Positions 23,828-56,835 of a stretch of 64,000 bases of DNA are shown here, piece by piece. The stretch covers positions 14,634,001-14,698,000 of the forward strand of contig CM119371.1 in NCBI GenBank assembly GCA_051294905.1, read 5' to 3'. Source of the DNA: Botryllus schlosseri. Taxonomy: Eukaryota. Under the pieces are notes generated by a model. The model made no database searches. It worked only from the letters and a program-made list of their open reading frames with translations, and was not told the DNA's origin. Every line of letters starts with the position of its first letter. The stretch's first letter is position 1. The position numbers were made by a program, and so were the translations under genes.

Positions 23828-24904
23828 ATGAGCTTCTGCTGGCTGACCGAACAACAAAAAGAAGAGCGTAGAATCAACGCGAGAATCGAAAAGCAACTGA
23901 GACGGGGAAAGAACGAGGCAAGAAAGGAGTTGAAGCTGCTGCTTCTAGGCGCTGGAGAGAGTGGCAAGAGCACATTTGTAAAGCAGATGCGCATCATTCA
24001 CGGACATGGCTACAGCGACCGCGACCGAGAAGGCTTCAAACAGCTGGTTCACGAGAACGTTCTGACATCCATTCAGAATTTGATAAGAGCCATGGGCACG
24101 CTAAACATAGAATACGCCAACCAAGACAATATCGTACATTCCGAGGTTTTACTAGAAGTCGAACACAGTACGGTGCGTACCGACGAGCAATTTGCAGAGT
24201 TTGTGGACGCAATAAAATCGCTGTGGCAAGACGAAGGCGTCCGTCAATGTTACGATAGGCGGCGCGAATATCAACTGTCAGATTCCACGTCGTATTATAT
24301 GAACGATCTCGACCGGATAAGGCAACCTGACTACCTGCCAACGCAACAGGACATCTTACGCGTGCGGGTACCGACTACCGGTATACAGGAGTACACGTTC
24401 AAGCTGAACGCGATTACGTTCCGCATGATGGACGTCGGAGGCCAAAGGTCGGAAAGGCGCAAGTGGATTCATTGCTTCGAAGGTGTGACTTCAATACTGT
24501 TCTTAGTAGCGTTGAGCGAGTACGACCAAGTCCTCGTTGAAGCGCAACACGATAATAGAATGGAAGAGAGCATAGCGCTCTTCAGGACAATACTGCAGTA
24601 CGATTTTTTTCAACAGTCTTCCATGATTTTATTTTTGAACAAGAGAGATTTGTTCGAGGAAAAGATCAAGGTGTCGAATCTGGCCGACTATTTTCCCGAT
24701 TACGAGGGCAAACAGCAATACGCGGAACAAGCAATGTATTTTATTTTGAGCAAGTTTCAGCAGTTACGAACCGAGGCGGAACGGTCCATATACCACCACT
24801 TTACCTGTGCCACGGACACATCAAACATCCGGGTCGTTTTTCGAGCCGTGAAGGACACTATTCTACAGAACAACCTGGACGAATATAATCTAGGCAATGC
24901 CTAA
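23828..24904 (+). CDS. GNAQ: Heterotrimeric G protein alpha subunit, Gq family (GNAQ/GNA11-like paralog 1), single-exon CDS, 358 aa
   Basis: Uninterrupted ORF with GAGESGKS P-loop, RVRVPTTG switch [18 protein letters not shown] switch [20 protein letters not shown] and TCATDT; C-terminus [19 protein letters not shown]. Symbol is family-level, not proven orthology. Confidence 0.93.
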
Positions 24905-25175
24905 CTGTTCTAGTGCGCGAACATGCCTGCATATGGGAATGCACGCATGCGTGTAACGCAGAAGAGAGACTTGTGTGATGGCATACGGAGCGACTGCGCA
25001 TGCGCATGTTTTAGTCGTCGGTTCTATATTGCGTTGCAAATGTAATCCGAAATTTTCAACAATCTCGCCTCTTTTCTCCGAATCTTGGCGTGCGTTATAC
25101 ACAACCGTGTAACAATCCGCCTTCCTAAATGGAAGGTTGTTCGAATGACATGCCTTGATTACGAAGTACCGCAAC

Positions 25176-25744
25176 TAGGGTAACATCTAAAACAAAAACC
25201 ATTTTAAAACAAACATGTTTAATACATGGCCCTATTTTAAAGCATGTTTTTAGCCATGACGCCACAAGTTGTCTGTTTATGACAGGAGCCGGAAACAGGG
25301 GCCGTCAAAGGTTGTGACGTTACAGTGGCCTGACATTGACAATTGAAAATACAGGATGTATAAATATGGCTCCTTGACGAAAAAGGCTTCCGACCCCTAT
25401 CATAAACGGACAATTCGTGGCGTCATCGCTAAAAAAAACATGCTTTAAACAGGGGCCGTGTTATGCGGCAGTTTACGGTCGGCGGTCATCATCGTCAGAA
25501 CGCCGATTCCGTACCAATGATCTCTATATCAACGGGTTATAACAGTTGTACCGACGACGATTTCGAGAGTTCCAACCATTCCATTATGTACACGTCGACT
25601 ATATACTGGTTGCAACCAACCCGTAGGCTCATATTACATGTTTTGTCGAAAGTATTCACAGAGGAATGGCTTAATTAGACAACTTCAAAAAAATCATGTT
25701 TTAAACAAAGTGTTTTAAAACCATTTATTTTAAATTCAACCACA
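25176..25744 (+). mobile_element. Second copy of the 22741 MITE family, 3' of Gq paralog 1
   Basis: Starts tagggtaacatctaaaacaaaa; shares the internal gagagttccaaccattcc..cgtcgactatata..cgtaggctcata block; absent from the homologous 3' flank of paralog 2. Confidence 0.7.
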
Positions 25745-27530
25745 ACCGATCACGATCACGATCACCAATCACGATATAGAAATCTCAGGCATGTAACTAT
25801 GGTATGCGATTGTAGCTGTTGTAATGATTGGAAGTTCTGGGGTTCAATCTGAAAGTGGCTACTGATGAATTTTGGACCATTAATCCCAGCTGTGATATAT
25901 TGGCTAAAAACAAACGCTTTCTGTCGATTTAACTTAGGCTGGAATATTTTCCAATGGGTCCTAACAACTGTTGTAGGTTAATAACTATCAACATGTTTGG
26001 ACTTTGAAATTATATCTTTTGACTTGTCTGATTAGAACATGTCCAGCTCTCTCTCGAAAACTGTTACGAAACTAGATCTCAAACGGATTCCTATTCCACC
26101 CATATGTGGCTGGCAACATCGTAAACTTTGCCGCGTTGATTACTGCTGCGCCATGACTCTCCACGCACTATCGCGTCATGTCATGGGAATACTGTTATTT
26201 CAGCGGAAGTTGGTAGCTATCAACCTAAACCCGATCGAATTTTGTAACAAAAGCTCCCATACAGTGCCGCATTGCTAGCTTTATGGAAGTACTTGAGGCT
26301 ATAGTGATGTGCTATGTATTCGTTATTGAAGAGTGATGTTTGCATCGAACTCTTCACATGCAAACTTCGATCTGATTAAATAGTTTATGGCGAGTTTGTT
26401 TCCTAACATCGCATCGCAATCAATCGCAAAGCACGCCTTGTGCTGTTATATATTGAGAGACTCGATATGCAACTAGCAGTAGTTATATACGCTGGTTGTT
26501 TATTTAGTTATTTTGCAGCTGAATTGACACTCTTAAGTTTTCTGTCACTGTTATGAACGAATGCAGAATATCATCGATTCAATCCAAATGTACATTGCCG
26601 ATACAGCAGATAAGCAGCAATGTTCATTGGCCTCTTGAATGTATGCTAAAATCGAGCTAGCACTAGCTTTTGTGAGGCTTATGCTTGGTATATAGGAATG
26701 CGCTCCGTGAATCAACGGACGGTTATCTGATGTTCATTTCGTTCAAGAAAAGATTACTTCTTGAAAATTGCGTTTGTTAATGTGTTTAACAAGTTTTTCA
26801 TCTATGATTGTTTTAAGTTATCAATTCCCATTCATGTATTGCATTTGTTGTCTGTAAAATGTTAAAAGATATATTTATAACAGCCAATTACGCGCTATAT
26901 TTACTTCATTAACGTAATATCTCAGCATGTTGTTCCGATATTTATTTTTATGTGGGACAGTTGGTTCACCTACGATTGCTTATACTAAAAGACTGAATTT
27001 TCTTTTCGGTAACGGCAATGTAACGCATCACTTGCCCGTAGACTTAATCCGTTTTCTATTCCTAGTTCTTAACTTCTCTGGAAATTTTAATTTCAATGAT
27101 TGGACTTATGTGGAATAGACTGAAGCATTGCTTTCGTCAACTTGCTCATGAGTATTTTATATAGCTGTGAATAGAGTCAGTCTAGCCTGGAAATGCATGT
27201 ATAGCATTGCTCTGGTACTCAATGTAGATTTCCGTCACCTGCTGCTTACCAAAGAGGACCTTTTTCGAATCTGACCGTTTTACTTCATCATCAACAATTT
27301 TCGAAGACATTACTCACTGGATTCGGAGTTCATTAGTCTAATATATTGAATTATATGGTTGGATTTGCATCTTTTCGTCGGTGATATCACCTTGTGATAC
27401 ATAGTCCGGTTATCACAAATATCGCTTTTGAAATTGATTTTTATTTTAGATTTTAGAATATGAAACCGTGCTATAGCTCTTTTGCAATAATCACGGATAT
27501 GCATAGCAAAATTTTGAAATTTGTCACTAG

Positions 27531-27934
27531 CAGGGCAAGTTTTTGCAACTTTTGCAACTTTTTTTACAGCTTGTGGCAGCTTCCTAAATACTCGTAAGAT
27601 ATGTACAATGCTGTTTTAAGCTGTTTGAAGGAATCTAATAGTGCAACTTTTTGCAACTTTTGTCCATCTTTTTCATGCAACATTTTGCAACTTTCTCGAT
27701 TTTTCATGAAAGTATTTTCGATTTTGTGGAATACACGGCCAAATTCGACTGAAACACCGTAAATCAGCACCGAAGTAACGTTTTACGGGTATTTCGGGAG
27801 CTGAGCCGCAAAATTGACCTTTTTTTAGTCAACCAAGCAAAATGTGGTCAAAATGCAACTTCTGCAACTTTTGTTAAAATTAAAAAAATAAATGCAACTT
27901 TCTCAGGTTTTTAGTGCAACAAAAACTTGCCCTA
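27531..27934. mobile_element. hAT-like MITE with TGCAACTTT subterminal repeats
   Basis: TIRs cagggcaagtttttg / caaaaacttgcccta; TSD degenerate. Confidence 0.7.
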
Positions 27935-28121
27935 GGTATTAGTCGTGGATTGAGAAATGTCTACAAAGCATCGCCGCCGAACACTTTTTCAGCTACTCGG
28001 GAATATGTCAACTTTCTTTTCCCTACTTTGCCCCCTCGGCATTTAAAAGAACTTACTTCTCCACTTGTAGTCGAGTCAGCGGCGTAGCAGCATATGCTGC
28101 CGCCTGTGTCTTTCGTTGAAA

Positions 28122-28406
28122 ATGTCGTTCTCAAACTGGTGGGCGAGGAAGCATCCGAAGGGGGTCGCGAAGCTGCGATCAACAAAAAAATATTCGCGGT
28201 ATGCGTGATTTACATCAAAATCATAGTTATTGCTCTGTGTATAGTCCGAATTTCATATTTGAGAATTCTCTTATCATCGCCTTCCATGCCGTCGAACTAT
28301 CCGTTAGGATCGCAAGCATTCTGGTTGCATTTTGTGATACGACGACTGGGCGTGACATTTTTCACTATCATTAGGGGGCGTGTCTAAAAAAGTTTGAGAA
28401 CCACTG
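28122..28406. mobile_element. Buster-like MITE, same family as 40693-40999
   Basis: Right end ggcgtgtctaaaaaagtttgagaaccactg; degenerate left end gttctcaaactgg. Confidence 0.65.
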
Positions 28407-28914
28407 TTTATGGTCGGTAGTAATCGCTCAGATGAGTTCATATATATAGTAAACGCCAGTAACGAAGTTTTAAAATCGCAAACAAACCCGTACTATTTTC
28501 GAAATTATATTCTTTCAGCGTGATACGGATGATACATTCCCGCAATATTATGCTATTTTCACTAATAAATGTGATGCAAATTTATTAAAATGTTATTTTG
28601 TGGTTTAGAAATTACAACCTCGAACAAGTGAGTAGCTACGCTTCAATAACTGCTGGGTGAAAGTAGTGTGAAAGGCGTCAAAATTATCAACACTTAATTA
28701 TACATAGAGTGAATAAAGTCTTGAGTACGCAAATATATTGGATGCTGATCACGTACATATGTGTCCATATGCGTCTTTAGTGTATGGTACACGGCAGACA
28801 TGGGGCTAATACGGAATCAATATAATCGATTGCGATTACGATTTCTTCTGGATAGCGACATTGCGGTTGCAGCAAAATTACCGAACTGTAGTCGATTACA
28901 ATGACGGTTACATG

Positions 28915-29660
28915 CAGTGGTGGCTTTTGGGGTGTGCGAGGTGGGCGGTCGCCCGGGCCCCTTGGTCGAAGTGGCCTCCCTGTTTGGCTTAAGCACTTTT
29001 GACAAGGATTATAGCGAATAAACGTGAAAATCCGTATACCGATCAAAAAGATTATTCCGTACAGATGGGTCAATCATCATCAAATCTCTGCATTTGTTAG
29101 AAAAGTCCCATATCCCGATAATCATCACGTCTCTGCATGCGGTAGAGGTACTTAGTTTTGATGTAGTCCATCCTTGCACAATACACACATGCAATAATAG
29201 ATATGGCCTAATCTAGCGCCTGGCTCAAATCTTGACGTCGTGTGCTGGCTTGTTACAAATGTCAGCTGATAGCTTTCCAGATTAGTGTTGTTGATTTATC
29301 CTGCATCAGTTGCATCGATATTATATTATTTCACGCTACATGTCATACATCTTCAACATGAAGACATGAGCTATAATGAACTGGGTCATTTCTCTTTTTT
29401 TTGACAATGTATGATAAGAGAAAGGCTGTGGAGCTAGAGCAACTCCACATTTAAGCCTGCTTCAAAGCCATGTTATAGTGTCATACATACACCATGTAAT
29501 TCCGTTTCATATGGCGCACTAATATGAAGTTGGCAATAATTGATGCGAAAGGGGGTCTGGGGGAGTCCCCCCGAAGTTACGATTACATACTTGTAGCCCC
29601 CCTCTCCCCCGGGAAGTCTCGCCCAGCCCCCCCCCCCTTCCAATCGTTGGGCCACCACTG
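28915..29660. mobile_element. hAT (Tip100-like) element inserted in an older cgattac-repeat element
   Basis: TIRs cagtggtggc / gccaccactg; perfect TSD gttacatg. Confidence 0.82.
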
Positions 29661-30933
29661 GTTACATGGAAAGTTACCATGATTACTGATAACTACATTT
29701 ATTTTGCTTCCTTCTAGGACAAGATAACGATTGCGTTGTGATTGTCTAACTATGGATTGTTTTTTTTGGAATATTTTACGTGATTAATTTGTTACGTCAC
29801 AATAAAGCCTTTGCCAAACTCAATAACGTGCTCGTGCTGTATACGTGCTGTATAAGCGGATCGCTGACGGCATATTAAAATTCTGAGTAAAAATTGCGAA
29901 ATATCGATTGGTGCCTGTTTCAAGTAGGAAAATGAGATAAAATGTACATGAAATTCTCACAAAACAAATAGTGCTTCTCGTAGTTGAACGAACATAGGAT
30001 GATTTAGATATCAAATCATCAGTAAAGAACGGTTTCTGATATAATCTCATACATATCAGCGATATTCAGTGTTGTTGTTATTTATTGAAACAAAATTTTG
30101 GCGCTTATCACCTGTTAATCTTTTGCACCACAGTCAATAATTGGGTAAGTAGTTGCAGTGATGTCGTTCTTAACTGTCGCTCGAAGTTCTCGTATTGTGA
30201 TATTTGTACATTTTCGGTATGCGTGAGCTGCGTTATACGAGAAGCGTAATTCGTTGTATTGAAACTTCGTGTTCATGATGTGCTATCTCCTGTATGGACC
30301 AACTTCAAGTGGGCGGCAATCATTTACGCCTTTTAAAATGTATAAGAGCTAGTACCATATTATTCGGTCCGCAGTTCACGGCGTTGTATACGCCCGACCG
30401 GATTGTCATAAAAGTTGACGCATCTCTGCCTTAGATATTTTGTTTTGGAGCGCCGGTTCGCCGACTTTCCGGTGTAATGATTGGTTTGCTATTAGTCTTT
30501 AGTTAGAGAATGTTATAGCTGTGCTATTGTGCTATATTGCAGCAAATAATACGTTCATATTGCCAAAAAGTTACTCCACTCGAAGCTTTTCGATGACTCT
30601 CTTGTCAGGAGCGAACGTCCGTAAATGCTATAGCACAAAATAAAAACTATTTCAAAGTATTTGAACATTGATCTATGTTTTAAGCATTATATTATACCGC
30701 TGGTTTTCCTTTATTATTCGATAATATAGCATGTTTCAGGAAGTCACTTGTGTCATCACAAAGCATCATTATGCTGAACCACCTGTTATCAGCGAATCGT
30801 TAGCATCAGTTTGAAAGTTGTTAACATTAGAAAGAATCGTGGTTTTACTTGTGTACTGCAAAATAACGTGGACAAACTGAAATTTGAGTAGAGTTGTTTA
30901 CATGAAAAAATGCCATTGCTAAGTAAAGTATAA

Positions 30934-31300
30934 TAGGACTGAGCGCAATGATTCGAGCACTCACGGAAGACCGAATCGAGTACTTATAATAGCCATTATT
31001 TGAGTCGAGCATACGTATAGCTATAGAGGGTATTTTTCAAGTACCGAAATCATACGCCCCTTTCCCCTATGATCTACAATAGGAACTGGGATTATGGTTT
31101 GGATACTTTTACCCAGCATTGAATCCTTGCAATCTCAATTGATCTTATGATCGCATCCAAAACTTGTAGCAAATGACCTCGTGCACAACTGGAAATGACA
31201 TATATTTGGAGTCGTGATCAACAAACGGATTTGACACCAGTATAATAAAACATCAGTATGGTCGAATTAATACCAAATTATCTTCGATGTGGTGTGCAGA
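30934..31300 (+). mobile_element. Partial copy of the Ac-like 'tcgagt' family (cf. 38033-38541)
   Basis: Starts taggactgagcgcaatgattcgagcac; internal colinearity with the 38033 copy. Confidence 0.6.
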
Positions 31301-31520
31301 CTTGGACAACTAGATAGTTTCACAAAATAAGACAGAAATGCAAGTAATCTAATTCTAATCTGATTTGTGAAATGTTTCTATGCTCTAATTCTAATACTAA
31401 TCTAACTTATTGTTTTCCTGAAAATGCCCCGTTGTCCGCGGCATTTTGCAGCGAGTTAACAAGAATATCCCTCTCGCGCAGAGAAATCCATGTGCCAAGT
31501 TGCCATCGCGTTACTTACAC

Positions 31521-32113
31521 TATAGAATGTAAACATGGAATGGCAACGACCGACTTAGCAGTTTCGTTCCGGTTCGCTGAAGTTTTAATCCAGAATTGTT
31601 TTGCGTAAGCGACTGTAGGATTTTTGGCAATACAAAAGTGATCTTCTAGAGCGCAGAATTTACTGAATCCGGTCTTAATCGGTCGGTCTTATACGGTCAC
31701 ACTGACTCCAAAAGTATGAATTAACATATGGTCAGCGTCCATACATTGATGAAAAATCACCTTCAACATCTGAAATGTGCATTGTTCAGAACGATTGGCT
31801 TATCGCGACATATTGACCAAAACAATGACCCGTTGCGGCTCTCCGATTGTTCGGACAATGCCAACATTTCAGATTTGGTGTGTGATTCTACCTGGCACAG
31901 TGCCTGATCATATTTTTATTTATATTTTCGAAATCGGTGCGACAGTAGCTTTCGATCAAGACCAGATTCAGTAATTTCTACGTTCTGGAAGATCACATTT
32001 GGATTGCCAGAAATCCTACAGTCGCTTACGCAAAACAAGTCTGGATTCCAGCTTCAGCGAAGCGGAACGAACCTGCAAAATCGGTCGTTGCCATTCCATG
32101 TTTACTTTCTATA
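31521..32113. mobile_element. Second copy of the foldback MITE (family of 7039-7617)
   Basis: Same arms and central spacer (acaatgacccgttgcg.ctctccgattgttc); flanks cttacac/ctgacac (6/7). Confidence 0.85.
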
Positions 32114-32905
32114 CTGACACAGTACAATCCGTTCATTCGTATAATCAAAGAAGGTATTGTGACGACTTACAGCCATCCGTTAGTACAGCGCCGAACCGGT
32201 TTTAGCCAGTGCCAGTGTTGTTGGGCGCATGCGAATAGCTTATTCTGAAAGAGAAACAATAATAATTTGAAACTGAAATTAGTTTCAGCATTTCAGAATG
32301 CTTTACTTCGCGTTCTTCCAAAATCACAAATCATGTGACCCGCGTCTTTGTGACCCGGCCGTGGTGAGTGCAAAACGAGCCAATATTGGTGCAGAGACGT
32401 TAACCATTCTCTTGATTAACGCACTGGGATTTGATATGAGCTGAAGTTGAATTTTGCTGTATTCATTTCTCATACACAATTCCATTGAATATATAAGTTT
32501 TTGCGAATTAGGTAATTTTAATTCTAATATTATTTGGGAAAAACTGTGTAGCTTTAATTCTAATCTAATTTGATAAAGCTGGAGATTTTCTAGTTTCCAA
32601 GTCTGGTGGTGTGCCACTGGCATTATATAGTCAGCGGTAGCATTTATTAACCATACACATAAAGCATGCCCTTATCGTGTGACGATTAGTGATACTTAGC
32701 TACGCGACTCGACTCAGAGGCTAGCACGAGATTCGGTATTCACTAATAAATTCTGCACATCCCTACTAACTGCCTGGAATCCAGTGCAAGCGACACTAGG
32801 CTTGTAGGTCTTGTAGCGATCGACCAGGTCACCTAGCAGTAATTTTCTACTTGATCATTGTCACAGTTTCATCGGTATCTATATTGCTATGCTTGATTAA
32901 ACACG

Positions 32906-33973
32906 ATGAGCTTCTGCTTGCTGTCGGAAAAAGAGAAAGAAGAGCGGAAAATCAACGCAAAGATCGAAAAGGAGCTGCGGCGCGATAAGAACGAAGCGCG
33001 GGCAGAGTTGAAACTTCTGCTGCTGGGCACGGGAGAGAGCGGCAAAAGCACGTTCGTGAAGCAGATGCGCATCATTCACGGCAAAGGTTACAGCGACAAA
33101 GATAAGGAAAGCTTCAAAGTATTGGTGTACGAAAACATTATAACATCCATACAAAATTTGATACGAGCCATGTCTACCCTAAACATCGACTACGCCAACG
33201 ATGACAACGTCGTGCACGCCGAGATATTACTTGAAGTGGATAATACCACCGTGCGAACCTATGAGCAGTTCGTTGAGTTTGTGAACGCTATAAAATCGCT
33301 GTGGCAAGACGAAGGTGTGCGACAATGTTACGACAGACGGCGCGAATATCAACTGTCGGATTCCACGTCGTATTACATGAGCGATATCGACCGGATAAAG
33401 CAACCAAACTACCTGCCCACGCAACAGGACATCTTACGCGCGCGCGTGCCGACTACCGGTATACAGGAGTACACTTTCAAGCTTAGCACGATTTCGTTCC
33501 GGATGATGGACGTTGGCGGTCAAAGGTCGGAAAGGAGAAAGTGGATTCATTGCTTCGAATGCGTCACTTCCATTCTGTTCTTAGTAGCGTTGAGCGAATA
33601 CGACCAAGTCCTCGTCGAGGCGCAACACGATAATAGAATGGACGAAAGCATCGCACTCTTCAAAACAATATTAAATTACGATTTTTTTAAAGACTCTTCC
33701 ATGATTTTGTTTTTGAATAAAAAAGATTTGTTCGAAGAAAAGATCAAGGTATCACACCTTGCGGACTATTTTCCCGATTACGAGGGCGCACGGGAAGACG
33801 CGAAGCAAGCCTCGAGTTTTATTCTGCAGAAGTTTCTGCAGTTGAGAGCCGACGCGGGACGGGTGATATACCATCATATTACGTGTGCCACGGACACTGA
33901 AACAATGCGAGTCGTCTTTGACGCCGTGAAGGATACTATTTTGCAGAACAACTTGGATGAATATCATCTGTGA
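32906..33973 (+). CDS. GNAQ: Gq-family G alpha subunit, paralog 2, single-exon CDS, 355 aa
   Basis: GTGESGKS (Gq-type P-loop), [30 protein letters not shown]; closest to paralog 1; ends [10 protein letters not shown]. Confidence 0.93.
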
Positions 33974-34462
33974 AATTCGTAACTCAGTTCTAGCATATAC
34001 GGAAATGTGAGCATTTTAGAATGCACGCTTGGGTTTAATGCAAAGCGACTTTGTGGGATGGAATGCGAAGCGTCTGTGTATGCATGATTTATCGACAGTT
34101 CGATATTGGTTGCAAATGTAAATCGAAATCGTAGACAATCTCGGCTCTTTGCTCAAAATCTGGAAGAGTACATGAACACACGACGGTGCTTACTCCCAGC
34201 ATCCTAAAATGCAAGGTCGTTTGAATGTCATGTAGTTATTCGGAACTACCAGAACAACTGAATAGGCTTGTAACTATAGATGTGTTGCGATTATATCCGA
34301 AGCAATGATCGAAAATTATTGTTCAATATCAAAGTTTCTATTGGGAATTTAGGACTATTTAAGCCCGTTGATATATCAGAGCTTACAGCCGATGGTATTC
34401 AGTCTACAATATTTTACAACGTGTTGATTACTGTTCTGCAATGTGTCGCAATGCAATGTCGG

Positions 34463-34825
34463 GTCATAGGAGCTCTGTTTTTTTTTCAACGGATGTTGCT
34501 AGCAGTCAACGTAACTCGATAGAATTTTGAGCTCCGAGAAAGCCCCAACTCAATATTAGATATATGAAAGCACTTATCGATGAATAGCTTTGGCGTTGGA
34601 CTTATGAATTTTTTTTCTGTCGGTACCATCCGTCATAGGAGTTCGTTTTTTTTTCAGCGGATGTTGGTTGCAATCAACACAAACTCAATCGAATTTTGTA
34701 AAGGAAGCTCCGCCTAGGTATTAGATTTGTGAAAGCACTTAGCAATGAAATGCTGCGCCGTGTTCGGTATTGAACAAATAGCGTTGTCGTCAGACTTACC
34801 ACAAATGTTTCTGTCGGTACCATCC
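34463..34825 (+). repeat. Diverged two-copy tandem duplication (~170-190 bp unit)
   Basis: Both units begin gtcataggag.. and end ttctgtcggtaccatcc; a single homologous unit is seen near 26180 behind paralog 1. Confidence 0.7.
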
Positions 34826-34832
34826 AATAGTT

Positions 34833-35499: not shown

Positions 35500-35767
35500 C
35501 AATAGTTAATTGAACTTTGGGTTTCAAATGTGTAATCGCCATCAAATGCGAAGTCCGCCATTGGCCATATGCATTGCAACACTCGATATGCAAGAAGTGT
35601 CCTATATTTACGTTGAAGGATTGAATATTTATTTTGTATGCGAATTGTCCTCCGTGCAACTTTACTAACACGTAGACGTAGACACGTAGCTAAAAGAGAA
35701 CGCGATCGCACGCGCGCAACAAGACTCGTGATAGAACACCTTCTGTGTCATATTCGAACGCACGCCG

Positions 35768-36045: not shown

Positions 36046-36103
36046 TACAGCGGACTCAGGTGATAAGGGCGAATTAGGTTAATCATTACGGTACGATTAC
36101 TTT

Positions 36104-39871: not shown

Positions 39872-39949
39872 GTTTCTACGTTCAACATACAGCAATTTAA
39901 GTACACTGCGCTAATAAATTCATTGAATACAGTTTTGGTCTCTCTTGTA

Positions 39950-46124: not shown

Positions 46125-47709
46125 CGGTAGTTCTCAACCTTTTTGACCTCGCGGCACACTTTGAAAATGACAAATAATACAGCCCCTGAAAACCACCAGA
46201 ATACCTATCAGCACCCCCACAACCACTATCGTACCAGCGTGTACTCAAACCTTTGACTACACGCTGATCGTACAGAGATGATGGTCTCTGACGAAGTACG
46301 TCTACTTTGTCTAAGCACTGAAGTAGGCTTCATTCTGATTCAAAGAAGAAATTACGGTATTTTCTAGGCCTACGGACATGTCACAAATAGGCTACGTCTA
46401 CTAATGGTATCATTTGACATGGGAATCGTTTTCAATTCTTCCGCAGCTTTGGTCCCAAACATTTTCTTTACAATGTTAGTGCAAGCCGGAAACAATAACA
46501 TTCTCCGCTTCCGTGGTCTTCATTTTTAGCTGTTACCTCTGCCACCACATAACTGATCTGCTGCGATCTCGTTGAAAACTTGGGCTGCGCTTAGATACTA
46601 TTTCATAAGATTTGTTGGACAAGCTCGATGGCCACTAACTAATACAGAGGCGTATACATGATGAAGATAGCGTAGTAGTGCGCGTCGGTACCATCTACGC
46701 AGGCGGCGCGGGATCGATGGCGCGGGATCGATTCCCGCCGTCGGTGGTTATTCTGGGCTCCCCGTACCCCGGGGCGCTGTTCTTACGCCGACAAAAAAGC
46801 CAAGGAAAAAGCCTCGATAAAGAAAGAAAGAAAGAAAGAGAAATAAATAGCTTATAAAAAAGGACCGACGATGGAAGAATAACATCGAAGAAGACCGGTT
46901 TAAGAGTCCCCAACTGGTTGGCCGTTGTTACATCGCATTGCGTGTCGTGTACATTACATTGTGTGAGTGTCTTGGGCAGATAAAAATATAATCTGATGAT
47001 TATTGATTGGTGTTTATTATTACATGGATGCCAGGCGCATTTCCACGCAGATCGTGTAACACGCGTGAGGATAGCAATACCTGGATAGTTCTACTGGCAT
47101 CCACCCGCAGTGCAATTATAGTTCCAACAAACCGTAATAATGACCTCAGCGGCGGGGGAATTTTTCAACCGATTTAATTTGATCAACTCAACTTCTTAAT
47201 TTTCAAACTCGTCGACTGTAACATATCGTTGCGCTCCGAGCCTACATTTCAACGGCAATGCCGGCACGCTACCTAACAATCGCAATATGGATAGCTTGGC
47301 TATCTTTTTAATTCGAATATTTGTAAACGTGAGCATCACTTCCAAATAAGTTTATTTCTTGCTGGTGATTAGGGGCACAATGTGGATTTGTAAACCGCAT
47401 TGCCATAAAGGCGCCATCCTATGTCCGTTCTGCTCTGCTTTGCGATCAATCGACGTATTGTGCGAATCTGAATTCACCCTTCAACTTCAATGCACGCGAT
47501 ATATCGGGTAAAAGGCGAATTCGCCGGGGTATTGATTGCGGGCTGTCAAATGTACAATCTTCACATCGCGCTCGAATTAGATTATTGATCGTTTGCGATA
47601 GACTAGAATTGTTTATTAATTTCAAAATTTCGAAGAAATCTCTCGCGGCACACTTGCGAGACGTAATTGGCTCACTAGTGTGCCGCGGCACGCCGGTTGA
47701 GAACCACTG
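46125..47709 (-). mobile_element. Buster/ZBED5-like hAT deletion derivative nested in 45957-48061
   Basis: TIRs cggtagttctcaacc / ggttgagaaccactg; perfect TSD gcctaaca; minus-strand remnant SYVVAEVTAK...FPACTNIVKKMFGTKAAEELKTIPMSNDTISRR (~46390-46560). Confidence 0.85.
46658..46848 (+). mobile_element. tRNA-derived SINE with (AAAG)n tail
   Basis: A-box-like tagcgtagtag, B-box-like ggatcgattcc, GC-rich body and aaagaaagaaagaaagaaag tail. Confidence 0.6.
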
Positions 47710-48528
47710 GCCTAACAATTGTGACATAAAGACTCAGTATTCATCCACGACCTAGACGGTAATGAAGGTAATGAATAATTTCGGTCAATAAAAATGTTAC
47801 AGGCATATATTGCTGGTCGCCTCTGCATATGCCACTGGGCTCATTTGACAAGGACATGATTGTTCGGCGCTTGTACTCATAAATACGTCAATGCGTCGGA
47901 ACTGATTTATTAGTCATCAAAGTCCAAAATTTCACGGTCAAGCCAATCAAAATTTGGTTATTTGGTTTTTCTAATTAATTCTTTGAAAATATAACCAATT
48001 TCGGGGATTACTCCGCGGGCCACTCAAAACCTTCTCGCGGGCCACGGGTTGGCCGCCCCTGCTCTAGAACCTCTGGCAAAAAGAAATTGTATTTAGGGCT
48101 GTTATTAAAACGCTGGCGTCCTGTGTTACATAGTTACATTGAAATCGAGATTTCGTTTTGAATTTGACTCCTGCGCCCTCATCCATGAAATCATCGGCTT
48201 TGGTCTTATTAGGATAATTATTTCTGTCACCAATGAGGGAATTTATATTGACCTGTAGACGGCTAAGCCTACCACATATACGCGTGTTCACCGAAACAGA
48301 GTAATTTACAAATCGATTACATGTCTGACATACCCAAATCACAAATGCGCATTTGGTAACGGGGAATCAGTTTGAGGCAATATATCACAACATAATAATG
48401 GTTATACTGCACTGAGGAGACAGCGTTCGCTTTCAGTTCAAGTGCTCACCGAAATCAGTTAAATAAGTTCCTGTTGCAGATATAAAAATTATAAATAGGT
48501 ACGCGTATAGTTGATCTGATGGGATATA

Positions 48529-49596
48529 ATGAATATCTGCTGTCTATCAGAAGAACAGAAGGAAGGGAGGCGAATAAACGCAAGGATTGAAAAGGAATTA
48601 CGGGATATGCGATATGCGGCCAGAAGTCGATTGAAGCTTCTTTTGCTGGGCACTGGAGAGAGTGGGAAGAGTACATTTGTCAAACAAATGCGCATCATTC
48701 ACGGGAAAGGATACAGCGATAACGAACGAAAAAACTTTATACATCTGATTCATTCAGACATTTACACGGCCATTCAAAATTTGATACAGGCCATGCCCTC
48801 TCTACAGATTGGATACGTGAATCAAGACAATGTCTCACATGCGAATGTATTGTCGGCCCTGGATATACGCGCCGCGCGAGAACATTATCAGTTCGCTGAC
48901 CACGTAGACGCGATACAGTCATTGTGGAATGATCCAGGAGTACAACAATGTTATGTTCGAAGGAGTGAATATCAGTTGTCCGATTCAGCAGCATATTACC
49001 TCAACGATCTTGATAGAATAAGGATAGCTGATTATACACCGACGATCCAAGATATCTTACGGGTCAGAGTACCGACTACCGGTATACATGAGTACACTTT
49101 CGAACTTGATTCGGTTACTTTTCGAATGATCGACGTCGGTGGTCAAAGGTCGGAGAGGCGAAAATGGATTCATTGCTTTGAAGACGTGACTTCGATATTG
49201 TTTCTGGTTGCCTTGAGTGAATACGATCAGGTGCTAGCGGAGTCGCAACATGAAAATCGCCTGTCAGAAAGCATAGCCCTTTTCGAGACAATCATCGGAC
49301 ATCAATACTTTAGGAACACTTCGGTGATATTGTTTCTAAACAAAAAAGATCTGTTTGAGGAGAAGATTATGGTGTCAGATCTCGCCGATTATTTTCCCGA
49401 CTATATGGGAGAGAGGAGACACGCGTCTGATGCCCGGGATTTCATTCGCGATAAATTTACAGAACTGCAAACAGAACACGAGAGGGCGCTGTATCATCAC
49501 GCCACGTGCGCGACGGACACGGATAATATTCGAATCGTGTTTTACGCTGTCAAAGATATCATTTTAAATGCGAACCTGAGGGATTTCCACTTGTAA
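48529..49596 (+). CDS. GNAQ: Gq-family G alpha subunit, paralog 3, single-exon CDS, 355 aa
   Basis: [10 protein letters not shown]-terminus (Gq-like Cys pair), [31 protein letters not shown]; ends [10 protein letters not shown]. Confidence 0.92.
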
Positions 49597-51666
49597 CGCT
49601 AACCCGGGTGAAACTCGCATGTTGTACACGTGCGGCTAGACATGTCGACTACCCAGGTATTGCCTCGTCTCAGTGGTTCTTAAGGATGTATCCAAGGAGT
49701 CGAAATCATTCTTTGCCTATCCTGGGTAGTGTCATTTCCCAGTTTTGACTGCTTCAAGAGAATCCGTGTTGTCATACCAATTCTAACGAAAATGTCAACC
49801 TCCGAAATTGTAATTGCGGCTATATTGATGAAGCACGGGGACTATGTGTGGGTGGATCCTGGAGGGTTCCTGTAGGTCAGGGTGAGGGATGGCTGAATGC
49901 CGTCGCGGCTCTCTATTACATTGACGATATGCGTTAGTATGTCTCGGTTTAAGGAGGCAATCGTGCGATTATTATTTCCTTATATGACAATATAGACCGA
50001 TATGAATTCCATGCGTTACTAATGAACTCGTTTGAATAGATCCGTTGCATCTACAAAGAGGAAGGAAAAGCGGCCACCTTTAGCAGAATGCCACTTGGGC
50101 CGCGAAAGTTTCACATTCACTATTCTCCAATAGACGCAACTATTTTGCATAAATTTTTTACAATTCAGATTATTCTTGTAATAAATATTAGGCAGGTCGT
50201 TAGAATTTATTTACAGTTTTGATGATTTAGCTAGCTCAATATAGAATGCTTAATAAGCAGCTTCCGCAGAAAGTAACCAGGATGTAAAATTGGCGTAGGG
50301 AGAATAAGGCGCTTTTTGACCTTCAGTCTTATGTCTTTCAGGGCTTGGCTACTGACTCCATTTCACCAGCGATCACCCTCATTTATGATTTATAAAAAAA
50401 ACTTATTCACGATCCCGGCTGTAACTGCACTCATATTTGAAACACTTGCCTTGCGCATGAAAAGTACCGTTTAAGTATGGCGAGATGTCCTGCGCTATGG
50501 TGGCGTATAACAGAGTAATGTCATTGAAGTTTGTTCCCCAATGTCTAGTTGAGAGCTAGCCAAGTCGCTGATCGATGGAAGGTATGATATGGGACATCTA
50601 TTACTGGCATTGTTTCTATTCAGAAATAATAACAAAATATAACAAACAAACTAAAACAATATGAAATTCATGAAATTATGGTAAATATAACTTAACAATG
50701 CGTCCTTCGGGCATGCTTATAAGCAATGCTCCCTCTAAGCTGCGCACGTGCGCAATTGCGCAGTGCTGACACGGTCTCTGCGCACAGAAAATCTAAGTTG
50801 CGCACAAGAAATCCGAAGTGAATACCTTTTCTTAGTCGTTACGCACTGTTGTCCAAGGGTCTGCGCAGTGAGTTGGTGAGTGTTACATTGTACAGTGTAC
50901 ACAGACTCGTCAAAAATTAGAGGGATACCGATACTATGTTAACCCTAATTGGTACCAATTATATTACTAGACAATTTAAATAACATCTAACTAAAACTAT
51001 CCTACCAACAACAAATTTAATACCAAATGTTCTTATCATTGGACATAAATATTAAAGGATCCGTTACATCTGGACTGGACAGTGGATGTTTATGTGGCGT
51101 AACAAACGACAACGAGCCCACGTATACTTTCATGGAGACTTGGACAAGTACAGAATTTTCCATCAATTCAAAGCACCACAGGACTGCAATACAATGAAAA
51201 AATAGGAAGGTGTCGAAACGAATGGGAGTAGCCTTTGAAATCAGACCCCATCCAGGCCAAGACGATGTAAAGAGTAAGCATGCACACTGCACAGTTGTAC
51301 ACCCAATCAATAGTAAAAGAAGACAATACAAAAAGACAAGCGACAAAATGAGATGGCGTGTGACGTAAGGCAAGATGGACATGTGAGGTCGTGGTACGGT
51401 AAACTTGAGGTCTGACATTGAATCAAGGTCCGTTAATATCAAATCATGTTTAATTCTTATGAACATGGGAATAGCAAATATCTGTACGGAAAGTGCATTT
51501 ATAGGAAAAGCAAAAATTAGATTAGAATTGAATGAAAGGATAGAAAGATTCTACTACGGTAGTAATTAGAATAAATTACAATACAGAATTATCTAGTTGT
51601 CAATTAGAATGATTGAAACAAAATGACTGCGTATTGTCCAAATCTGATCTCATAGCGGGATTGTAA

Positions 51667-52871
51667 TAGGGTTGGACTATCTGGATAGTGGTTAACCGAT
51701 CAACCGATAACCGATCAACCGATATCAATCTATCTGATATCTGGATATAATTCGGCCGGTTAACCGGATAAAAGAGTATCATTGCTAATGCGTTAATGCG
51801 TCAATAAGTCCTATTATATCAGTGTTGCGCGCGGCCAATTAGCGAGAAGCGGGTTGCCAATTAGCGAGATTCATCTGTGTACATGTACGTACACTGTACA
51901 CTGTGTACAGTACAATGTAACGCGACTGCTCGGCAATCGTCGCTGGCCTGATTTATCGCATCTCCAACAAGCCTAAGTGGCTTTGCATCTGCAATCGGCC
52001 CTGTGCACACTGTACCATCGCTGGCCCGCACAATCGCATCTGCATTGGCTTGGTGCGCACGATATTATCGCTGGCCTACACAATCGCACCTGCAATAGGC
52101 AACAAACAAACAAAGCATGCGTTGGCTCCTATCTCTCTATAGATCGGAGACAATATGCCGTTAAGTGTATGCCGATTAGCGATTGTGATCAAAGAGTGAC
52201 ATTGCGAAACGTCGGATGGTGGCAAACATGATCATGCGTGCATGCGTAATTGATTTCCGACGATACTTAATTCGAAAACAAATCCCCTCCCCCCTTTGTT
52301 TCAAACCCCCTTATTTTTCCGCTACGCTCCTGATCACGTGAGTCTCTCAAGGAGGAATTAGAGAGAGCTATCATCTCGGCAGCAATTCCAGTACCAGCTA
52401 CTCGTCCTTTCAGTACTCCAAACCTAAACAGAAGAATGGTCCAAAATAAACTAAAGTCTTTGAAGCTTCTGGGAAACGACCTGCCAACCTCCTGACTCTC
52501 TATGAAGCGCTGCTTACTATTCAGCCCACTTCTGCGGAAGCAGAAAGAGCATTCACTGCATGTGGGCTCTTTGCTAAAAGACTCCGGTCCCGTCTACAGG
52601 ATTCCACAATTGATGCATTGTGCTTTATAAGGATGGTGTTGCAGAAGCAGTGAACATTCAATTTGCGTGATTTTTCTGGTATTGGCTCGTACTGTGCGTA
52701 GATCTACAATAACACTGTCTAATGATTACGATCCATTTTTCATGCCAACCTCAAAATCGATTGTCACACTTAGCAGGTATTAGCCGGTTAACCGGTTAGA
52801 TAAATTCCAAATATACGGATATATTTACGTTATCCGGATAGTTAAAATTATTGATATCCGAACCAACCCTA
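51667..52871 (+). mobile_element. Ac-like hAT deletion derivative
   Basis: TIRs tagggttgg / ccaacccta, accgat/ccggata subterminal repeats; TSD gattgtaa/aattgtaa (7/8). Confidence 0.8.
52453..52653 (+). pseudogene. hAT transposase C-terminal dimerisation-domain fragment
   Basis: Open frame KVFEASGKRPANLLTLYEALLTIQPTSAEAERAFTACGLFAKRLRSRLQDSTIDALCFIRMVLQKQ*, matching the hATC PTSxxxERxFS...RSRL motif. Confidence 0.8.
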
Positions 52872-54348
52872 AATTGTAAAGAAGCAACAGCGCTATCTCG
52901 AGTCTCGATTCTTAATACAATAAAGAACACAAATAATAAACCAATACAATACATTGTTCGTAATTGCTATTTAAATAGTTACGCATCAAGCAACAGTATG
53001 TCGAAAAATCCATAGTGTTTTCCTGGCGATCCAGTCTGCGGTCAGCGAAGAGGGGCCAATTATTATTAACGGTGCGTGGTCAGTAAAATGACATCATAAT
53101 TTATCTTATTCCCTGATACGTCTAGGAGGCCAAGTCCCAAGTGGGCTCATAGCAGGGTCAAAACTACTAAAGTGACTCTTTGAGGCTCGGAACGTCTATA
53201 TAAAATTAAATAATATATTCAATAGGAAACAACAAAGGATGCATGCTGATGCTGACTTTGCACATGTATAAGGGTATATAGCCTATTTCTACAAAATATT
53301 CAATAACCTGGCACTGCTTTCGCACTTCGCGAGGTCCACATCCAGACATTAATTTTGCCTGTTGTCCGATATCGAAGTTTAGTGACAAGTCTCGCCATCA
53401 ATCGTTAGTAATCAGATGATTGACCTTGCAACATCTAGAAAGCATATATGTGCGACTCGCGCTCTCAGCGCATTAAGTTAAAGTTGGCCGTTCAATCAAA
53501 AATGCCGCACACCCTAAGCCCGTGTTTCTTAGTCTTTTTAGCGTTCGTATACCCTAAAAGAACTAAAAGAAAAACCCTTTTCCAGAGACTTTCCGAATTC
53601 GTGTACTATGGGGTTGCATTTTTTCCGTGAGGCTCATATTTCATAGACCAGAGACATTTCGGTTACTGGACAGTGGAGATAATACTACTATCGACGATAA
53701 CGGATAACATCCAGTGTTCTTACGGGGCAAATGTTTATCCCTGCCGATCTCTTTGCCGCTGCAGATTTCTGGATTGCAGGTGTACCAAAACGTCGTAGAT
53801 TGTGGTAGGCTATATGTTCAGTGGCGGAATTTATGACCGGCACCGAAATGCCAGTGTCTGAGAGTCTCACACCAGCTGGACTAAAGCAGCCCTACGGCTT
53901 CAAAGAATGATAGCGAAAAAGATTTCAGTAATTTCAGTGATTTCAGTAACATATGTTTTATTCTTATCATTACCCTACTATCCTTCCGTCGGATGGGATG
54001 GTGCCCAAATTGAGAGCAATGAATCTTTTCAAGTGAAATCACGCAAGGATGATTTCCGAACTGAAGAAACCCGTCCAATAATATTCTACTCTCTGTTGAT
54101 TTGCAAAATAATTCTGCTGCATAGGCTATAATTTTACACTAGGCCTACATCTCTTACGCCGTATTGCGGTACTTCTTATTTCCAAGGGTTCGATGAACCC
54201 CTGGTTAAAAACCACAGCGGAAATAGTTCCGTTCATTACCTGGCCGATTGATTTCTGTAGGCAGGGAATAGGTAGGTTACTGTACGAAATACCGAAGAGA
54301 TGGTTGCGCTCCTACAGCAGTATGCATAGTATACTACCGACTACAATC

Positions 54349-54484
54349 ACTACATAGTATACTACCTTCGGTAAATAGCAGCACATCGATAGTATTCATT
54401 CAATAGCACTAGTAGGTAGTATACTACATAGTATACGACCTTCGGTAAATAGCAGCATATCGATAGCATTCATTCAATAGCACT
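54349..54484 (+). repeat. Near-perfect two-copy tandem repeat (~74-bp period)
   Basis: actacatagtatac.accttcggtaaatagcagca.atcgatag.attcattcaatagcact occurs twice. Confidence 0.8.
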
Positions 54485-55767
54485 GCATCCGTCGACAAGA
54501 TGGTGTTGATCCATAGAATTAGGTTGGATACTTGTTTTATGCTGGATGCACGGGATGAATGGCAGCTTAATTATCAGAATGACAAACGAGGGCACAACTT
54601 ACTCCAATATTCATTTCTATGTAACATATCTGTCCTTCGTAATCTTCTTCGTCGCTGTACGGTATTGCTTGTTTACAGCCTTCATTTCGGTAGCTTATAT
54701 GGCCTACTTGTTGATAAGCTGTTTTTTTTTCGAACTGCATTGATAAGTCATTGTCAAACTCGCATTGTACTTATGATATCAGATCTGTGTCATCGTGTGG
54801 CTAAATACCAAGTTTACCAATTAATGTTGCGCACTCCAGTTGATTCACGATTCCACATCAAAACACCAGTGACGACACAAATAACATATATCACATACAA
54901 CTGATAACATATAAGCTACAATTTAAATTTATAAACTTCTAAATACCCCGGAGGACTCATTGCCAAAATAATTTTTAAATAATTTCAACATGTTAGGAGT
55001 ACATTGCTTTAGTGTTAGTGCGTTTATTATGGCTATGTTGGTTGCATTTCTTTGTAAATGAAGACCCGTTCAAAAACGGTTTCCGCGATGAATGACAGTG
55101 ATAGCTGACGAAAGTGAGTAAGCTTCGGGCCGCTGGATGATGAAGTTCTCGTTTTACATCCCGGATACTTATCATTCCATATCGAGCTATAGCCAAATCC
55201 ACAAACTCGACATCAAATGCATCAAACGCATCATTGCCTCTTTGAACAGGTATATGCCATACCATGTCATTAACGTAAGAGTGATCCAATGATCGTATCT
55301 TGTGTGCAGGAATCACAAACACGTCCTGCTACGATCATTCTATATTACCCCTTCTCCCATTGTCCCAGTCATTTACTGATAGTTGTAACCGAGTTACCTT
55401 TTCGGAAGGTACCAGTTTTTGTTCAAGTTGAGGTGATGTCAAGTATTCACTTTGACGCAGTGACAAGCGTTACGTCACACCACCCTGGATGATAATTCGG
55501 AAAGTACAAAAGCTTATCAATCACTCTTAGCCATACGTGCTCCACGTGAACAGTGCCTTACAACATCCTAGAACGAAAGTGGGACGTGCCACAAATCACT
55601 AGATAATGAATCATAATAAGAAATAACGGCCAGTTGTAAATAACCATAGTAGTCGAAGCACCAAAGATACCAAAAACAGCATGAACAGAACCCTTGACTA
55701 CGCCCCTGATTTCGAGCAGCTCCACCGAGACGAGGCAGTATATGTTAGTTTCACTTTCCGTCGAGCG

Positions 55768-56835
55768 TTACACGGGAATATCATCCAAGTTCGCGTTTAA
55801 AATGATATCTTTGACAGCGTCAAATACAATTCGAATATTTTTCGTGTCCGTCGCGCATGTCGCGTGATGATATATCGCCCCATAATGTTCAGTCCTTACT
55901 TGTATAAATTTATCACGAATGAAATTTTGGGCATCCGGTACGCGTCTCCGCTCTCCCATGTAGTCAGGGAAATAGTCTGCGAGATCTGTCACCATAATTT
56001 TCTCCTCAAACAGATCTTTTTTGTTTAGAAACAATATCACTGAAGTGTTTCTGAAGTATTGATGTCCAATGATTGTCTCAAAAAGGGCTATGCTTTCGGC
56101 AAGGCGGTTAACATGTTGAGACTCCGACAGTACCTGATCGTATTCACTTAACGCTGCTAGAAACAATATCGAAGTCACGTCCTCAAAGCAATGAATCCAT
56201 TTCCGCCTCTCCGATCTTTGGCCCCCAACATCTATCATTCTGAAAGTAACCGAATTAAGTTTGAAAGTGTATTCATGAATTCCCGTGGTCGGTACTCTGA
56301 CACGTAAGATATCTTGCAGCGTCGGTATATAATCAATTGTCCTTATCCTATCAAGATCGTTGAGGTAATATGCTGCTGAGTCTGACAGTTGATATTCATT
56401 CCTTTGGTCATAGCATTTCTGCATTCCTTGATCATTCCACAACGACTGTATCGCTTCTACGTGGTGAGCGAACTGATCATGTGTTCGAACATCGCGTGTA
56501 TCCAGAGCTACCAATACATTTGCATGCGAGACATTGTCTGGGTTTGCATATTTAATCTCTAGAGTGGACATAGCCTGTATCAAATTTTTAACGGCGGCGT
56601 AAATGTCGGAATGAACCAAATGTGTAAATTCACAGCGCTCGGTATCACTGTATCCTTTCCCATGAATGATGCGCATTTGTTTGACGAATGTACTTTTACC
56701 ACTCTCCCCAGTACCTAGCATAAGTAGTTTAAGTTGTCTTCTGGCTTCATTTTTCGTGTCCCGTAATTGATTTTCAATCCTTGAGTTTATTCGTCTCCTC
56801 TTCCTTTGTTCTTCCGTTAGACAGCATATATTCAT
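55768..56835 (-). CDS. GNAQ: Gq-family G alpha subunit, paralog 4, single-exon CDS, 355 aa
   Basis: [40 protein letters not shown]; closest to paralog 3 and convergent with it; ends [10 protein letters not shown]. Confidence 0.92.

Follow-up and report, generated by a model that had tools for sequence, protein, structure and literature searches.

The window considered here is a 64,000-nt stretch of the Botryllus schlosseri genome (C1:14634001-14698000 of a 495.5-Mb assembly of 219 contigs) that contains four single-exon genes for the α subunit of a Gq-class G protein. Gq is among the most conserved signalling proteins of animals and is normally encoded by a single gene outside the vertebrates. 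The locus raises the question where these genes came from, if they are maintained, and what their products might do. A sequence-only reading of the window had proposed that a retrocopy of Gq was amplified by local DNA duplication and kept under selection while its interaction surfaces diverged, and had suggested chemosensory, immune or gamete receptors as possible partners. The analysis described below makes it probable that the genes belong to a lineage-restricted, Gq-derived subfamily that was founded by a retrocopy, amplified in tandem and maintained by selection, with the GTPase core kept and the effector and receptor surfaces remodelled.

The intronless Gq-class genes and their parent

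Five open reading frames (ORFs) of at least 200 amino acids are present in the window, and four of these encode Gα proteins (copies A to D). Copies E and F and a broken copy lie outside the window on the same contig.

23828..24904, + strand: copy A, intronless Gq-class Gα gene, 358 aa, Pfam Gα match with E 1.5e-133
32906..33973, + strand: copy B, intronless Gq-class Gα gene, 355 aa, 82% identity to A
48529..49596, + strand: copy C, intronless Gq-class Gα gene, 355 aa, 80% identity to D
55768..56835, - strand: copy D, intronless Gq-class Gα gene, 355 aa, 94% identity to E
C1:20184605-20185663, - strand: copy E, intact intronless Gq-class gene, 5.5 Mb away, 94% identity to D
C1:14628652-14629707, + strand: copy F, intact intronless Gq-class gene, 5 kb upstream of the window, 57-59% identity to A-E
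C1:14698877-14699436, - strand: broken copy, D-type pseudogene covering residues 1-187, with a 1-nt deletion after about codon 84

Copies A-D match the Pfam Gα profile PF00503 over positions 2-333 of 333 (E 1.5e-133 to 3.2e-127). Copies E and F are also full-length matches that include the helical domain (positions 4-333 for F), and the range over all six is E 1.5e-133 to 6.4e-126. Among proteins of solved structure, Gq chains are the best matches to copy A (E 5.6e-154), Gi-labelled chains following at 2.4e-113 or weaker, and copy F behaves similarly (Gq chains 1.5e-134, Gi chains 1e-100). The A/B pair and the C/D pair are 63-67% identical to each other in protein sequence. All four window ORFs carry the P-loop, the switch I arginine (R183 in Gq numbering), a 17-residue switch II with Q209, NKxD and TCATDT; the G1-G5 motifs (GxGESGKST, TCATDT) and the catalytic switch I Arg and switch II Gln are likewise present in 6/6 copies. 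The earlier description of four intact, intron-free Gα frames of 355-358 aa thus stands in its coordinates, full-length Pfam matches and complete motifs. Its count of four is correct for the window, but the whole family is larger by two intact copies and one broken copy. An AlphaFold2 model of copy D from a 29-row alignment had a mean predicted local distance difference test score (pLDDT) of 63.6 and a predicted template modelling score (pTM) of 0.52. A Foldseek search with this model ranked Gq chains first (E 2.6e-27), but the template modelling scores were 0.38-0.40 and the result adds nothing to the sequence evidence.

A six-frame search of the genome with copy A gave 43 matches, six of which are full-length uninterrupted Gq-class ORFs; one more is the truncated, frameshifted copy. 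The array reads F(+), A(+), B(+), C(+), D(-), broken copy(-) over a span of about 71 kb, and no further Gα pieces were found within 80 kb on either side of it. The start codon of copy F is uncertain: its frame remains open for 21 codons upstream of MGLCC to another ATG (L006:1438-1500, +), and this extension is largely conserved (...CAIVAL.VMGLCC) in an ortholog, P0160, from another organism.

The sequence-only reading suggested a search for a canonical multi-exon Gq gene in the same genome. This gene is present on another contig (C15:13327639-13336424), encodes 360 aa in seven coding exons of 133, 185, 161, 129, 130, 154 and 191 nt with GT-AG borders, and is 89% identical to the Logan protein P0032. 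At its N-terminus it closely resembles the Gq protein of an ascidian, Halocynthia roretzi. Lokits 2018 describes preGNAQ as a gene of seven coding exons, and this hallmark of Gq/11 genes is held by the host canonical gene but absent from all six copies, which are single uninterrupted ORFs. The copies align colinearly with the canonical protein (60-68% identity; A-D are similarly close to vertebrate Gq at about 60-67%), and none of the six parental coding introns occurs in any copy. An intronless or equally divergent canonical Gq in this lineage is ruled out by the seven-exon, conservative (89%) gene on C15.

Selection on the copies and their changed surfaces

Ratios of non-synonymous to synonymous change (dN/dS) were calculated over the full length by the Nei-Gojobori method. 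With the canonical gene counted, 17 of 21 pairs were saturated (pS >0.75) and gave no ratio. The four remaining pairs were as follows.

A-B: dN 0.108, dS 0.860, dN/dS 0.126, P versus neutrality 6e-29
C-D: dN 0.110, dS 0.642, dN/dS 0.171, P versus neutrality 3e-21
C-E: dN 0.112, dS 0.601, dN/dS 0.186, P versus neutrality 2e-19
D-E: dN 0.027, dS 0.144, dN/dS 0.185, P versus neutrality 1.5e-8

The proposal that the copies are kept under selection is borne out by these values (0.126-0.186, P at most 1.5e-8 in each unsaturated pair). The ortholog of copy F, P0160, is a 373-aa protein encoded on a 1,657-nt Logan contig; it is identical to F at 318 of 373 positions (85%) without gaps, and the tree path between the two is 0.17 as compared to 0.133 for the canonical pair. 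The broken copy, compared over the same 186 codons, has 38 unique changes versus 9 in D and 11 in E. Of these 38 changes, 17 are synonymous and 21 non-synonymous, and dN/dS on its own branch is about 0.34 instead of 1. The broken copy, which was probably a working gene for some time, thus serves only as a soft neutral control.

The rate of protein change tells a second part of the history. Relative to the parent, the copies have accumulated 2.6 to 11 times more unique amino-acid changes, and all 18 Tajima tests, with three outgroups, gave P at most 1.6e-4. To judge from these counts, the pattern is one of an early burst of protein change followed by constraint, and purifying selection would have acted on the copies since then.

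The positions of these changes were examined with the interface residues from Supplementary Tables 1-3 of Navot and Kosloff 2019 (PMC6499889), of which 35 of the 36 residues of Table 1 were used. Numbering follows a 359-aa vertebrate Gq row, and the comparison set consists of 20 canonical-type Gq rows ranging from protostomes to vertebrates. In all six copies P185, T187, I189, E191 and R202 are unchanged, as are all listed switch II contacts from Q209 to E221 and the effector-region residues R247, E250, A253, L254, T257 and I258. Of the 181 positions that are invariant in the 20 canonical rows, 55 are altered in at least one copy, yet among the invariant contacts to regulators of G-protein signalling (RGS) this holds for only 1 of 16. 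The proteins are predicted to have retained GTP binding and hydrolysis, cycling with Gβγ and switch-off by RGS proteins.

The replacements around the α3 effector cleft are of a different kind. P193 is replaced in every copy (Thr in A-E, Asn in F), K252, which is Lys or Arg in canonical rows, is Ile in every copy, and W263 is likewise replaced throughout (Phe in A and B, Tyr in C-E, Leu in F). Five of six copies have lost P262 (Asp in A and B, Gln in C-E) and five of six E245, and E249 and N222 are altered in most. In C, D and E, Tyr261 is changed to His and Arg256 to Glu, a charge reversal; residue 256 is Lys in B and F. P193, E245, E249, Y261, P262 and W263 show no variation across the 20 canonical-type rows. 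As a result, the classical set of cleft residues for phospholipase C-β (PLC-β), p63RhoGEF and GRK2 is not retained complete in any of the copies.

Both ends of the proteins have also changed. The C-terminus is [KR]E[YF]NLV in 20/20 canonical rows and altered in 6/6 copies: DEYNLGNA in A, DEYHL in B, RDFHL in C, DDIPV in D and E, and EQCQI in F. The N-terminal extension is four residues shorter than in the host canonical protein. In Gq/11 proteins this extension has two adjacent palmitoylated cysteines and no Gly2. Adjacent cysteines are found in C, D, E and F, the last starting with MGLCC if the second ATG is used, and a single one in A (FCW) and B (FCL). A role of the C-terminus in receptor selection is cited (Conklin 1993) in the accessible part of PMC12176390. 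The changes thus fall in the lipid-anchor region at the N-terminus, in the receptor-selecting final five to seven residues, and in the cleft formed by α3 and α3-β5 where PLC-β, p63RhoGEF and GRK2 dock. The copies are likely to act as Gq-like switches that respond to other receptors and whose effector preference is altered or new. The earlier statement that the interaction surfaces had diverged is correct for the α3 cleft and the C-terminus but not for the switch and RGS surfaces, which were kept. By these residues the A/B pair appears closest to classical Gq, and C/D/E and F furthest from it. The copies are presumed to be transcribed, and a change in their coupling is what we infer from the replaced residues.

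Several observations weigh against a directed change of the effector surface. Effector-only contacts are altered at 10 of 25 invariant positions versus 45 of 156 elsewhere, which is no significant enrichment (Fisher p 0.35). The sharper split, 10 of 18 for α3, β2 and the C-terminus against 0 of 7 for switch II, was drawn after seeing the data. Moreover, no copy has lost T257, A253, L254 or E250, and PLC-β binding may therefore persist, especially in A and B. One may accordingly regard the copies as redundant or tissue-partitioned ordinary Gq proteins, which retain PLC-β coupling, differ in expression through subfunctionalization, and carry surface changes that are tolerated drift. We hold this to be possible but not likely. 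It would agree with the unchanged switch II, T257, A253, L254, E250, I217, H218 and F220 in all copies, with the EYNL near the C-terminus of A, with R/K256 and Y261 in A and B, and with the lack of significant enrichment. It does not account well for the loss of the canonical-invariant P193 and W263 in 6/6 and of P262 and E245 in 5/6 copies, for K252 to Ile in all of them, or for the charge reversal at R256 combined with Y261 to His in C/D/E. Mutations at such positions are known to abolish effector or GRK2 binding: the accessible part of PMC8316552 reports that R256A/T257A disrupts PLC-β and p63RhoGEF binding and that Y261F, T257E and W263D abolish GRK2 binding. Evolution 2.6-11 times faster than the parent combined with present constraint fits a changed function better than drift.

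The remodelling favored here could go further than a shift in preference. A new Gα class might be arising from a Gq retrogene within the tunicates, the sister group of the vertebrates, with C/D/E and F no longer serving the classical effectors of the α3 cleft and coupling their own receptors to a different effector. This remains a tentative proposal that we consider rather doubtful. If it is true, the family would repeat, at a young stage, what is proposed for Gα12/13 as a retrogene of Gq, with the parent, the intermediates (A/B) and the derived forms in one genome.

The changed residues also bear on the use of inhibitors. In the accessible part of PMC6463727, sensitivity to FR900359 and YM-254890 is assigned to D71, V182, V184, I190 and P193. 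Every copy has replaced I190 and P193, C-F have also replaced D71, and V184 is kept; a reduced sensitivity of the copies would be expected from these replacements. When 'Gq' is knocked down or inhibited in tunicates, as many as six paralogs with changes at both I190 and P193 may escape. Position 190 is Ser in the host canonical Gq itself, as it is in P0032, Halocynthia and Styela; the remaining canonical rows carry Ile there. Even the canonical Gq of that group may therefore respond differently to FR900359/YM-254890.

Origin of the family and its spread

A two-residue insertion in the helical domain is found in 9/9 tunicate canonical Gq rows and 6/6 intronless copies, and in 0/11 non-tunicate rows (vertebrate Gq/11/14, amphioxus, hemichordate, protostomes). 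Its presence in both groups indicates that the copies descend from the tunicate Gq lineage. Trees without a Gi outgroup were calculated with 26 rows and then with 27, P0160 being added to break the long branch of F. In both trees the six copies form one clade (support 100/99), and this clade is nested inside tunicate Gq (100/99), where the canonical host gene groups with Halocynthia and Styela. The position of the intronless clade within the group of Halocynthia, Styela, host canonical gene and P0032 has support of 93/96 (26 rows) and 96/97 (27 rows), and that as sister to the host canonical gene plus P0032 82/84 and 83/81. The copies share D243 to Gln ('ESQ', in switch III) and 'NLI' only with these two proteins. 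The trees contained no Gs, G12 or Gv rows, and the phylogeny suggested in the sequence-only reading was accordingly realized in part: it places the copies in Gq, and in the tree that includes the Gi-class copies of this genome the Gq clade stands against these with 100/100 support.

The placement is open to several objections. With the Gi-class copies of this genome as outgroup, support for the intronless clade falls to 64/61 and the clade moves to the base of Gq. We read this as long-branch attraction because dropping the outgroup gives 100/99 and the nested position. The approximately unbiased (AU) test does not reject trees in which all tunicate canonical Gq genes stand together (p 0.165 and 0.126), nor those that unite the four stolidobranch-like canonical genes (p 0.221), and the sister position to the host canonical gene has only 83/81 support. 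Orthologs of A-E in other organisms were not found in the protein-collection searches. The timing of the origin within the tunicates is thus not firm. The split between F and P0160 is much shallower than those among F, A/B and C/D/E, and genes of the A/B and C/D/E types should on this ground exist in the source organism of P0160; they were not found in the protein collection.

In view of the above, the clade could be an old tunicate paralog that arose by duplication at or before the base of the ascidians and was expanded here. Its orthologs might then be a divergent Gq-class gene that Ciona has as its second, or a GNA15-like fragment from Botryllus, and the paralog would be one already known though hardly studied. 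The AU result, which keeps nine canonical tunicate Gq rows as a clade without the copies (p 0.165, 0.126), is compatible with this, as are the long branches (stem of the intronless clade 0.31, stem of F 0.92) that make the placement unsure. Ciona does have a second Gq/11-class protein according to the accessible parts of PMC2752167 and PMC12176390, and a Gq-family fragment of B. schlosseri is listed in Appendix A.i of Lokits 2018. Nevertheless, we regard such an origin as unlikely: the best trees nest the clade in the group of Halocynthia, Styela and the host gene (96/97), 'ESQ' and 'NLI' are shared with the host canonical gene and P0032 alone, and the Ciona protein is 42% identical to human G11 as compared to about 60-67% between A-D and vertebrate Gq, with the Ciona and Botryllus sequences compared by description only.

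For the founding event itself, retroposition is what we infer from the loss of introns in a monophyletic group and the location of the parent on another contig. A processed copy of tunicate Gq most likely landed on contig C1. The proposed retrocopy of Gq is in line with the single Gq origin (100/99), the absence of all introns and the parent elsewhere, but a direct trace of the event is lacking: no A-run of at least 8 and no AATAAA or ATTAAA was found within 420 nt downstream of the six copies, and no target-site duplication was seen, though no systematic search for these was made. This also counts against a retrocopy origin, though with synonymous sites saturated a poly(A) remnant is not expected if the event is old.

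Later spread at the DNA level is supported by the tandem layout on one contig and by the segment common to D and E, 3.1 kb at 90.6% identity, which includes 1.28 kb upstream and 0.75 kb downstream of the ORF. These features agree with the local DNA duplication proposed earlier. Local tandem and inverted duplication would have produced the array of about 71 kb with F, A, B, C, D and the broken D-like copy, and one segmental copy, E, would have been placed 5.5 Mb away. The heavy divergence of the flanks that had been noted is also seen here: A and B are alike only between -10 and about +266 relative to the ORF, C and D between -145 and +4. Homology confined to the ORF and 10-270 nt on either side is close to the size of an mRNA, and each copy could in principle be a separate retroposition from the mRNA of a sister copy. 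We consider this improbable. Six copies in one 71-kb stretch, with no other Gα within 80 kb, would be an unexpected layout for independent insertions, the youngest pair D-E shares 1.28 kb upstream and 0.75 kb downstream, and at dS 0.6-0.9 neutral flanks are expected at background identity anyway.

Recently inactivated, untranscribed pseudogenes are very improbable and contradicted by dN/dS 0.13-0.19 (P at most 1.5e-8), as one neighbouring copy truly is a pseudogene but shows visible decay (the 1-nt deletion, truncation at codon 187, 38 unique changes), whereas six ORFs of 354-358 codons are open despite saturated synonymous sites between subgroups and F is conserved across species; an assembly artefact, equally improbable, is rejected since the copies are 57-94% identical in protein and have unique flanks, which is not the pattern of a collapsed or duplicated assembly. 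In the broken copy (about 90% nucleotide identity to D) the homology stops abruptly at nt 562 and is followed by unrelated sequence.

Some flanking DNA is conserved between copies, and the following features can be distinguished.

23818..23827, + strand: ATTAAACACA, the 10 nt directly ahead of the start codon of A; also present in B, at 32896-32905
24905..25170, + strand: 3' flank of A alignable with B, candidate 3' untranslated region (UTR), alignment to +266
33974..34250, + strand: 3' flank of B alignable with A, candidate 3' UTR, from the A-B comparison
48384..48528, + strand: block upstream of C, candidate core promoter and 5' UTR, 145 nt, conserved with D and E; GCAGATATAAA at 48476-48486
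56836..56979, - strand: block upstream of D, conserved with C and E; GCAGATATAAA at 56876-56886

The similarity between A and B begins at the ten bases before the ATG, where ATTAAACACA may be a start context or else the end of a 5' UTR or an acceptor. Downstream, where about 270-300 nt of 3' flank are common to both, A-B identity is 0.71 at +1..150, 0.63 at +151..300 and 0.385 beyond +300, the value for unrelated pieces being 0.42. The upstream block of C, D and E has 0.67-0.69 identity (unrelated pieces: mean 0.42, maximum 0.54). It contains GCAGATATAAA 41-53 nt before the ATG; this motif occurs exactly twice in the window, a count reached in 0/100 shuffles, and is also retained upstream of the broken copy outside the window. 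It could be a core promoter of TATA type or a splice acceptor region. In the D-E pair, identity is higher over the first 300 nt upstream (0.96-0.97) than at third codon positions (0.92). The conserved flank blocks would be indirect signs of a transcription unit.

Relation to known Gα genes, and neighbouring loci

The copies have the fold and the class in common with canonical Gαq/11 (GNAQ/GNA11, or preGNAQ in invertebrate deuterostomes), and they keep its motifs for GTP binding, both catalytic residues (Arg and Gln), the whole of switch II and the contacts to RGS proteins. Canonical Gαq/11 is a single gene with seven coding exons, whereas the copies are intronless and form a multi-copy tandem array; they differ further in the shorter N-terminal extension, the altered α3 cleft, the alteration of the C-terminal EYNLV and the 2.6-11-fold rate. 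In the accessible part of Lokits 2018 no tandem duplication of preGNAQ is confirmed outside the vertebrates, and the intronless reinsertions reported there for urochordates concern preGNAI, not preGNAQ; for Botryllus schlosseri that part gives only a Gq-family fragment. These preGNAI copies and the divergent dvGai of Ciona (PMC12176390, accessible part) are, like the copies described here, extra Gα genes of tunicates that are intron-free or divergent. They derive from Gi, whereas the present family derives from Gq and consists of a six-gene clade in a tandem array.

Reinsertions of the preGNAI kind also exist in this genome, as an intronless tandem pair of Gi-class genes (L007 and L008, C9:16135804-16136835 and 16151969-16152973; E 9e-150 to Gi1). 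In addition, one very divergent intronless Gi/o-like Gα ORF (L010, C7:2022412-2023362) and a tandem pair of intronless Gα ORFs with only about 22% identity to copy A (L016, C15:18966170-18970594) were observed. Apparently about 11 of roughly 18 Gα loci in this genome are single-exon.

Extra, divergent genes of the Gq class are known from tunicates as well: in Ciona a second Gq/11-class gene (JGI 390373 / Gaq_Chr11), and in Botryllus schlosseri the GNA15-like fragment. In the accessible parts of PMC2752167 and PMC12176390, Ciona has one canonical Gq and this second, much more divergent protein with 42% identity to human G11. Both are a single gene or a fragment as opposed to a six-copy family, in a comparison made by description only. 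GNAZ and the proposed retrogene origin of Gα12/13 are precedents for a processed Gα copy that founds a distinct subfamily; preGNA12 is proposed as a retrogene, possibly of preGNAQ, in the accessible part of Lokits 2018. Those events are ancient and were followed by gain of introns and of known effectors, whereas the present one is confined to part of the tunicates. The gpa genes of nematodes are used in chemosensory neurons. With about 20 Gα genes in C. elegans, they too are a lineage-specific multiplication beyond the four core classes (PMC2752167 and Lokits 2018, accessible parts). The nematode genes have introns and group outside the four classes, whereas the copies described here are unmistakably Gq-derived.

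Paralogs of Gα derived from retrogenes are thus already known, but we found no description of a Gq-derived tunicate array in the literature. No published account of an intronless or expanded Gq family in tunicates was found, though the curated supplements of Lokits 2018 could still list it. In a collection of 5.8 billion proteins, identity did not exceed 67% for A and 64% for D within the top 120 hits listed from 8000 candidates scored for each, and a profile of the six copies retrieved only the F ortholog from the protein collection. Since that collection lacks the proteins of the host itself, the result reflects sparse sampling as much as restriction. An exact look-up in a collection of 15 billion proteins found 0/6 copies, which is uninformative since the host canonical Gq is absent as well (best match P0032, 89%).

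A slowly evolving parent beside six selected, intron-free descendants, in which cleft and tail have been rewritten to different degrees, is available in one genome. Such a natural series lends itself to studying which residues determine the effectors and receptors of Gq-class proteins and how a Gα class can be born from a retrogene.

Some features of the locus and its surroundings are of minor importance. Third-position GC is 0.58-0.60 in A, B and F, equal to the canonical gene (0.58), 0.41 in D and E, equal to the genome average, and 0.47 in C. Thirteen further window ORFs of at least 110 aa gave no Pfam matches, and neither tandem repeats nor tRNAs were found when the window was searched for them. 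The fifth long ORF of the window (62350-63966, +, 538 aa) encodes an intronless BTB-BACK-Kelch protein. A tandem run of such genes follows the array (C1:14740628-14774404), where all five long downstream ORFs that were scanned are of this type (L036:2628-3857, L038:7680-9326, L039:1943-2947, L039:3051-4292 and L039:4758-6404). Two adjacent ones resemble halves of a split gene, and the stretch contains three more ORFs (131, 542 and 543 aa). The region of the array seems to gather tandemly duplicated single-exon genes. About 80 kb downstream of the array lies the pol gene of a long terminal repeat (LTR) retrotransposon, a 1242-aa frame whose domains are those of a reverse transcriptase, an RNase H and an integrase (L040:1702-5427, -, corresponding to C1:14779702-14783427); elements of this kind are a possible source of reverse transcriptase for retroposition.

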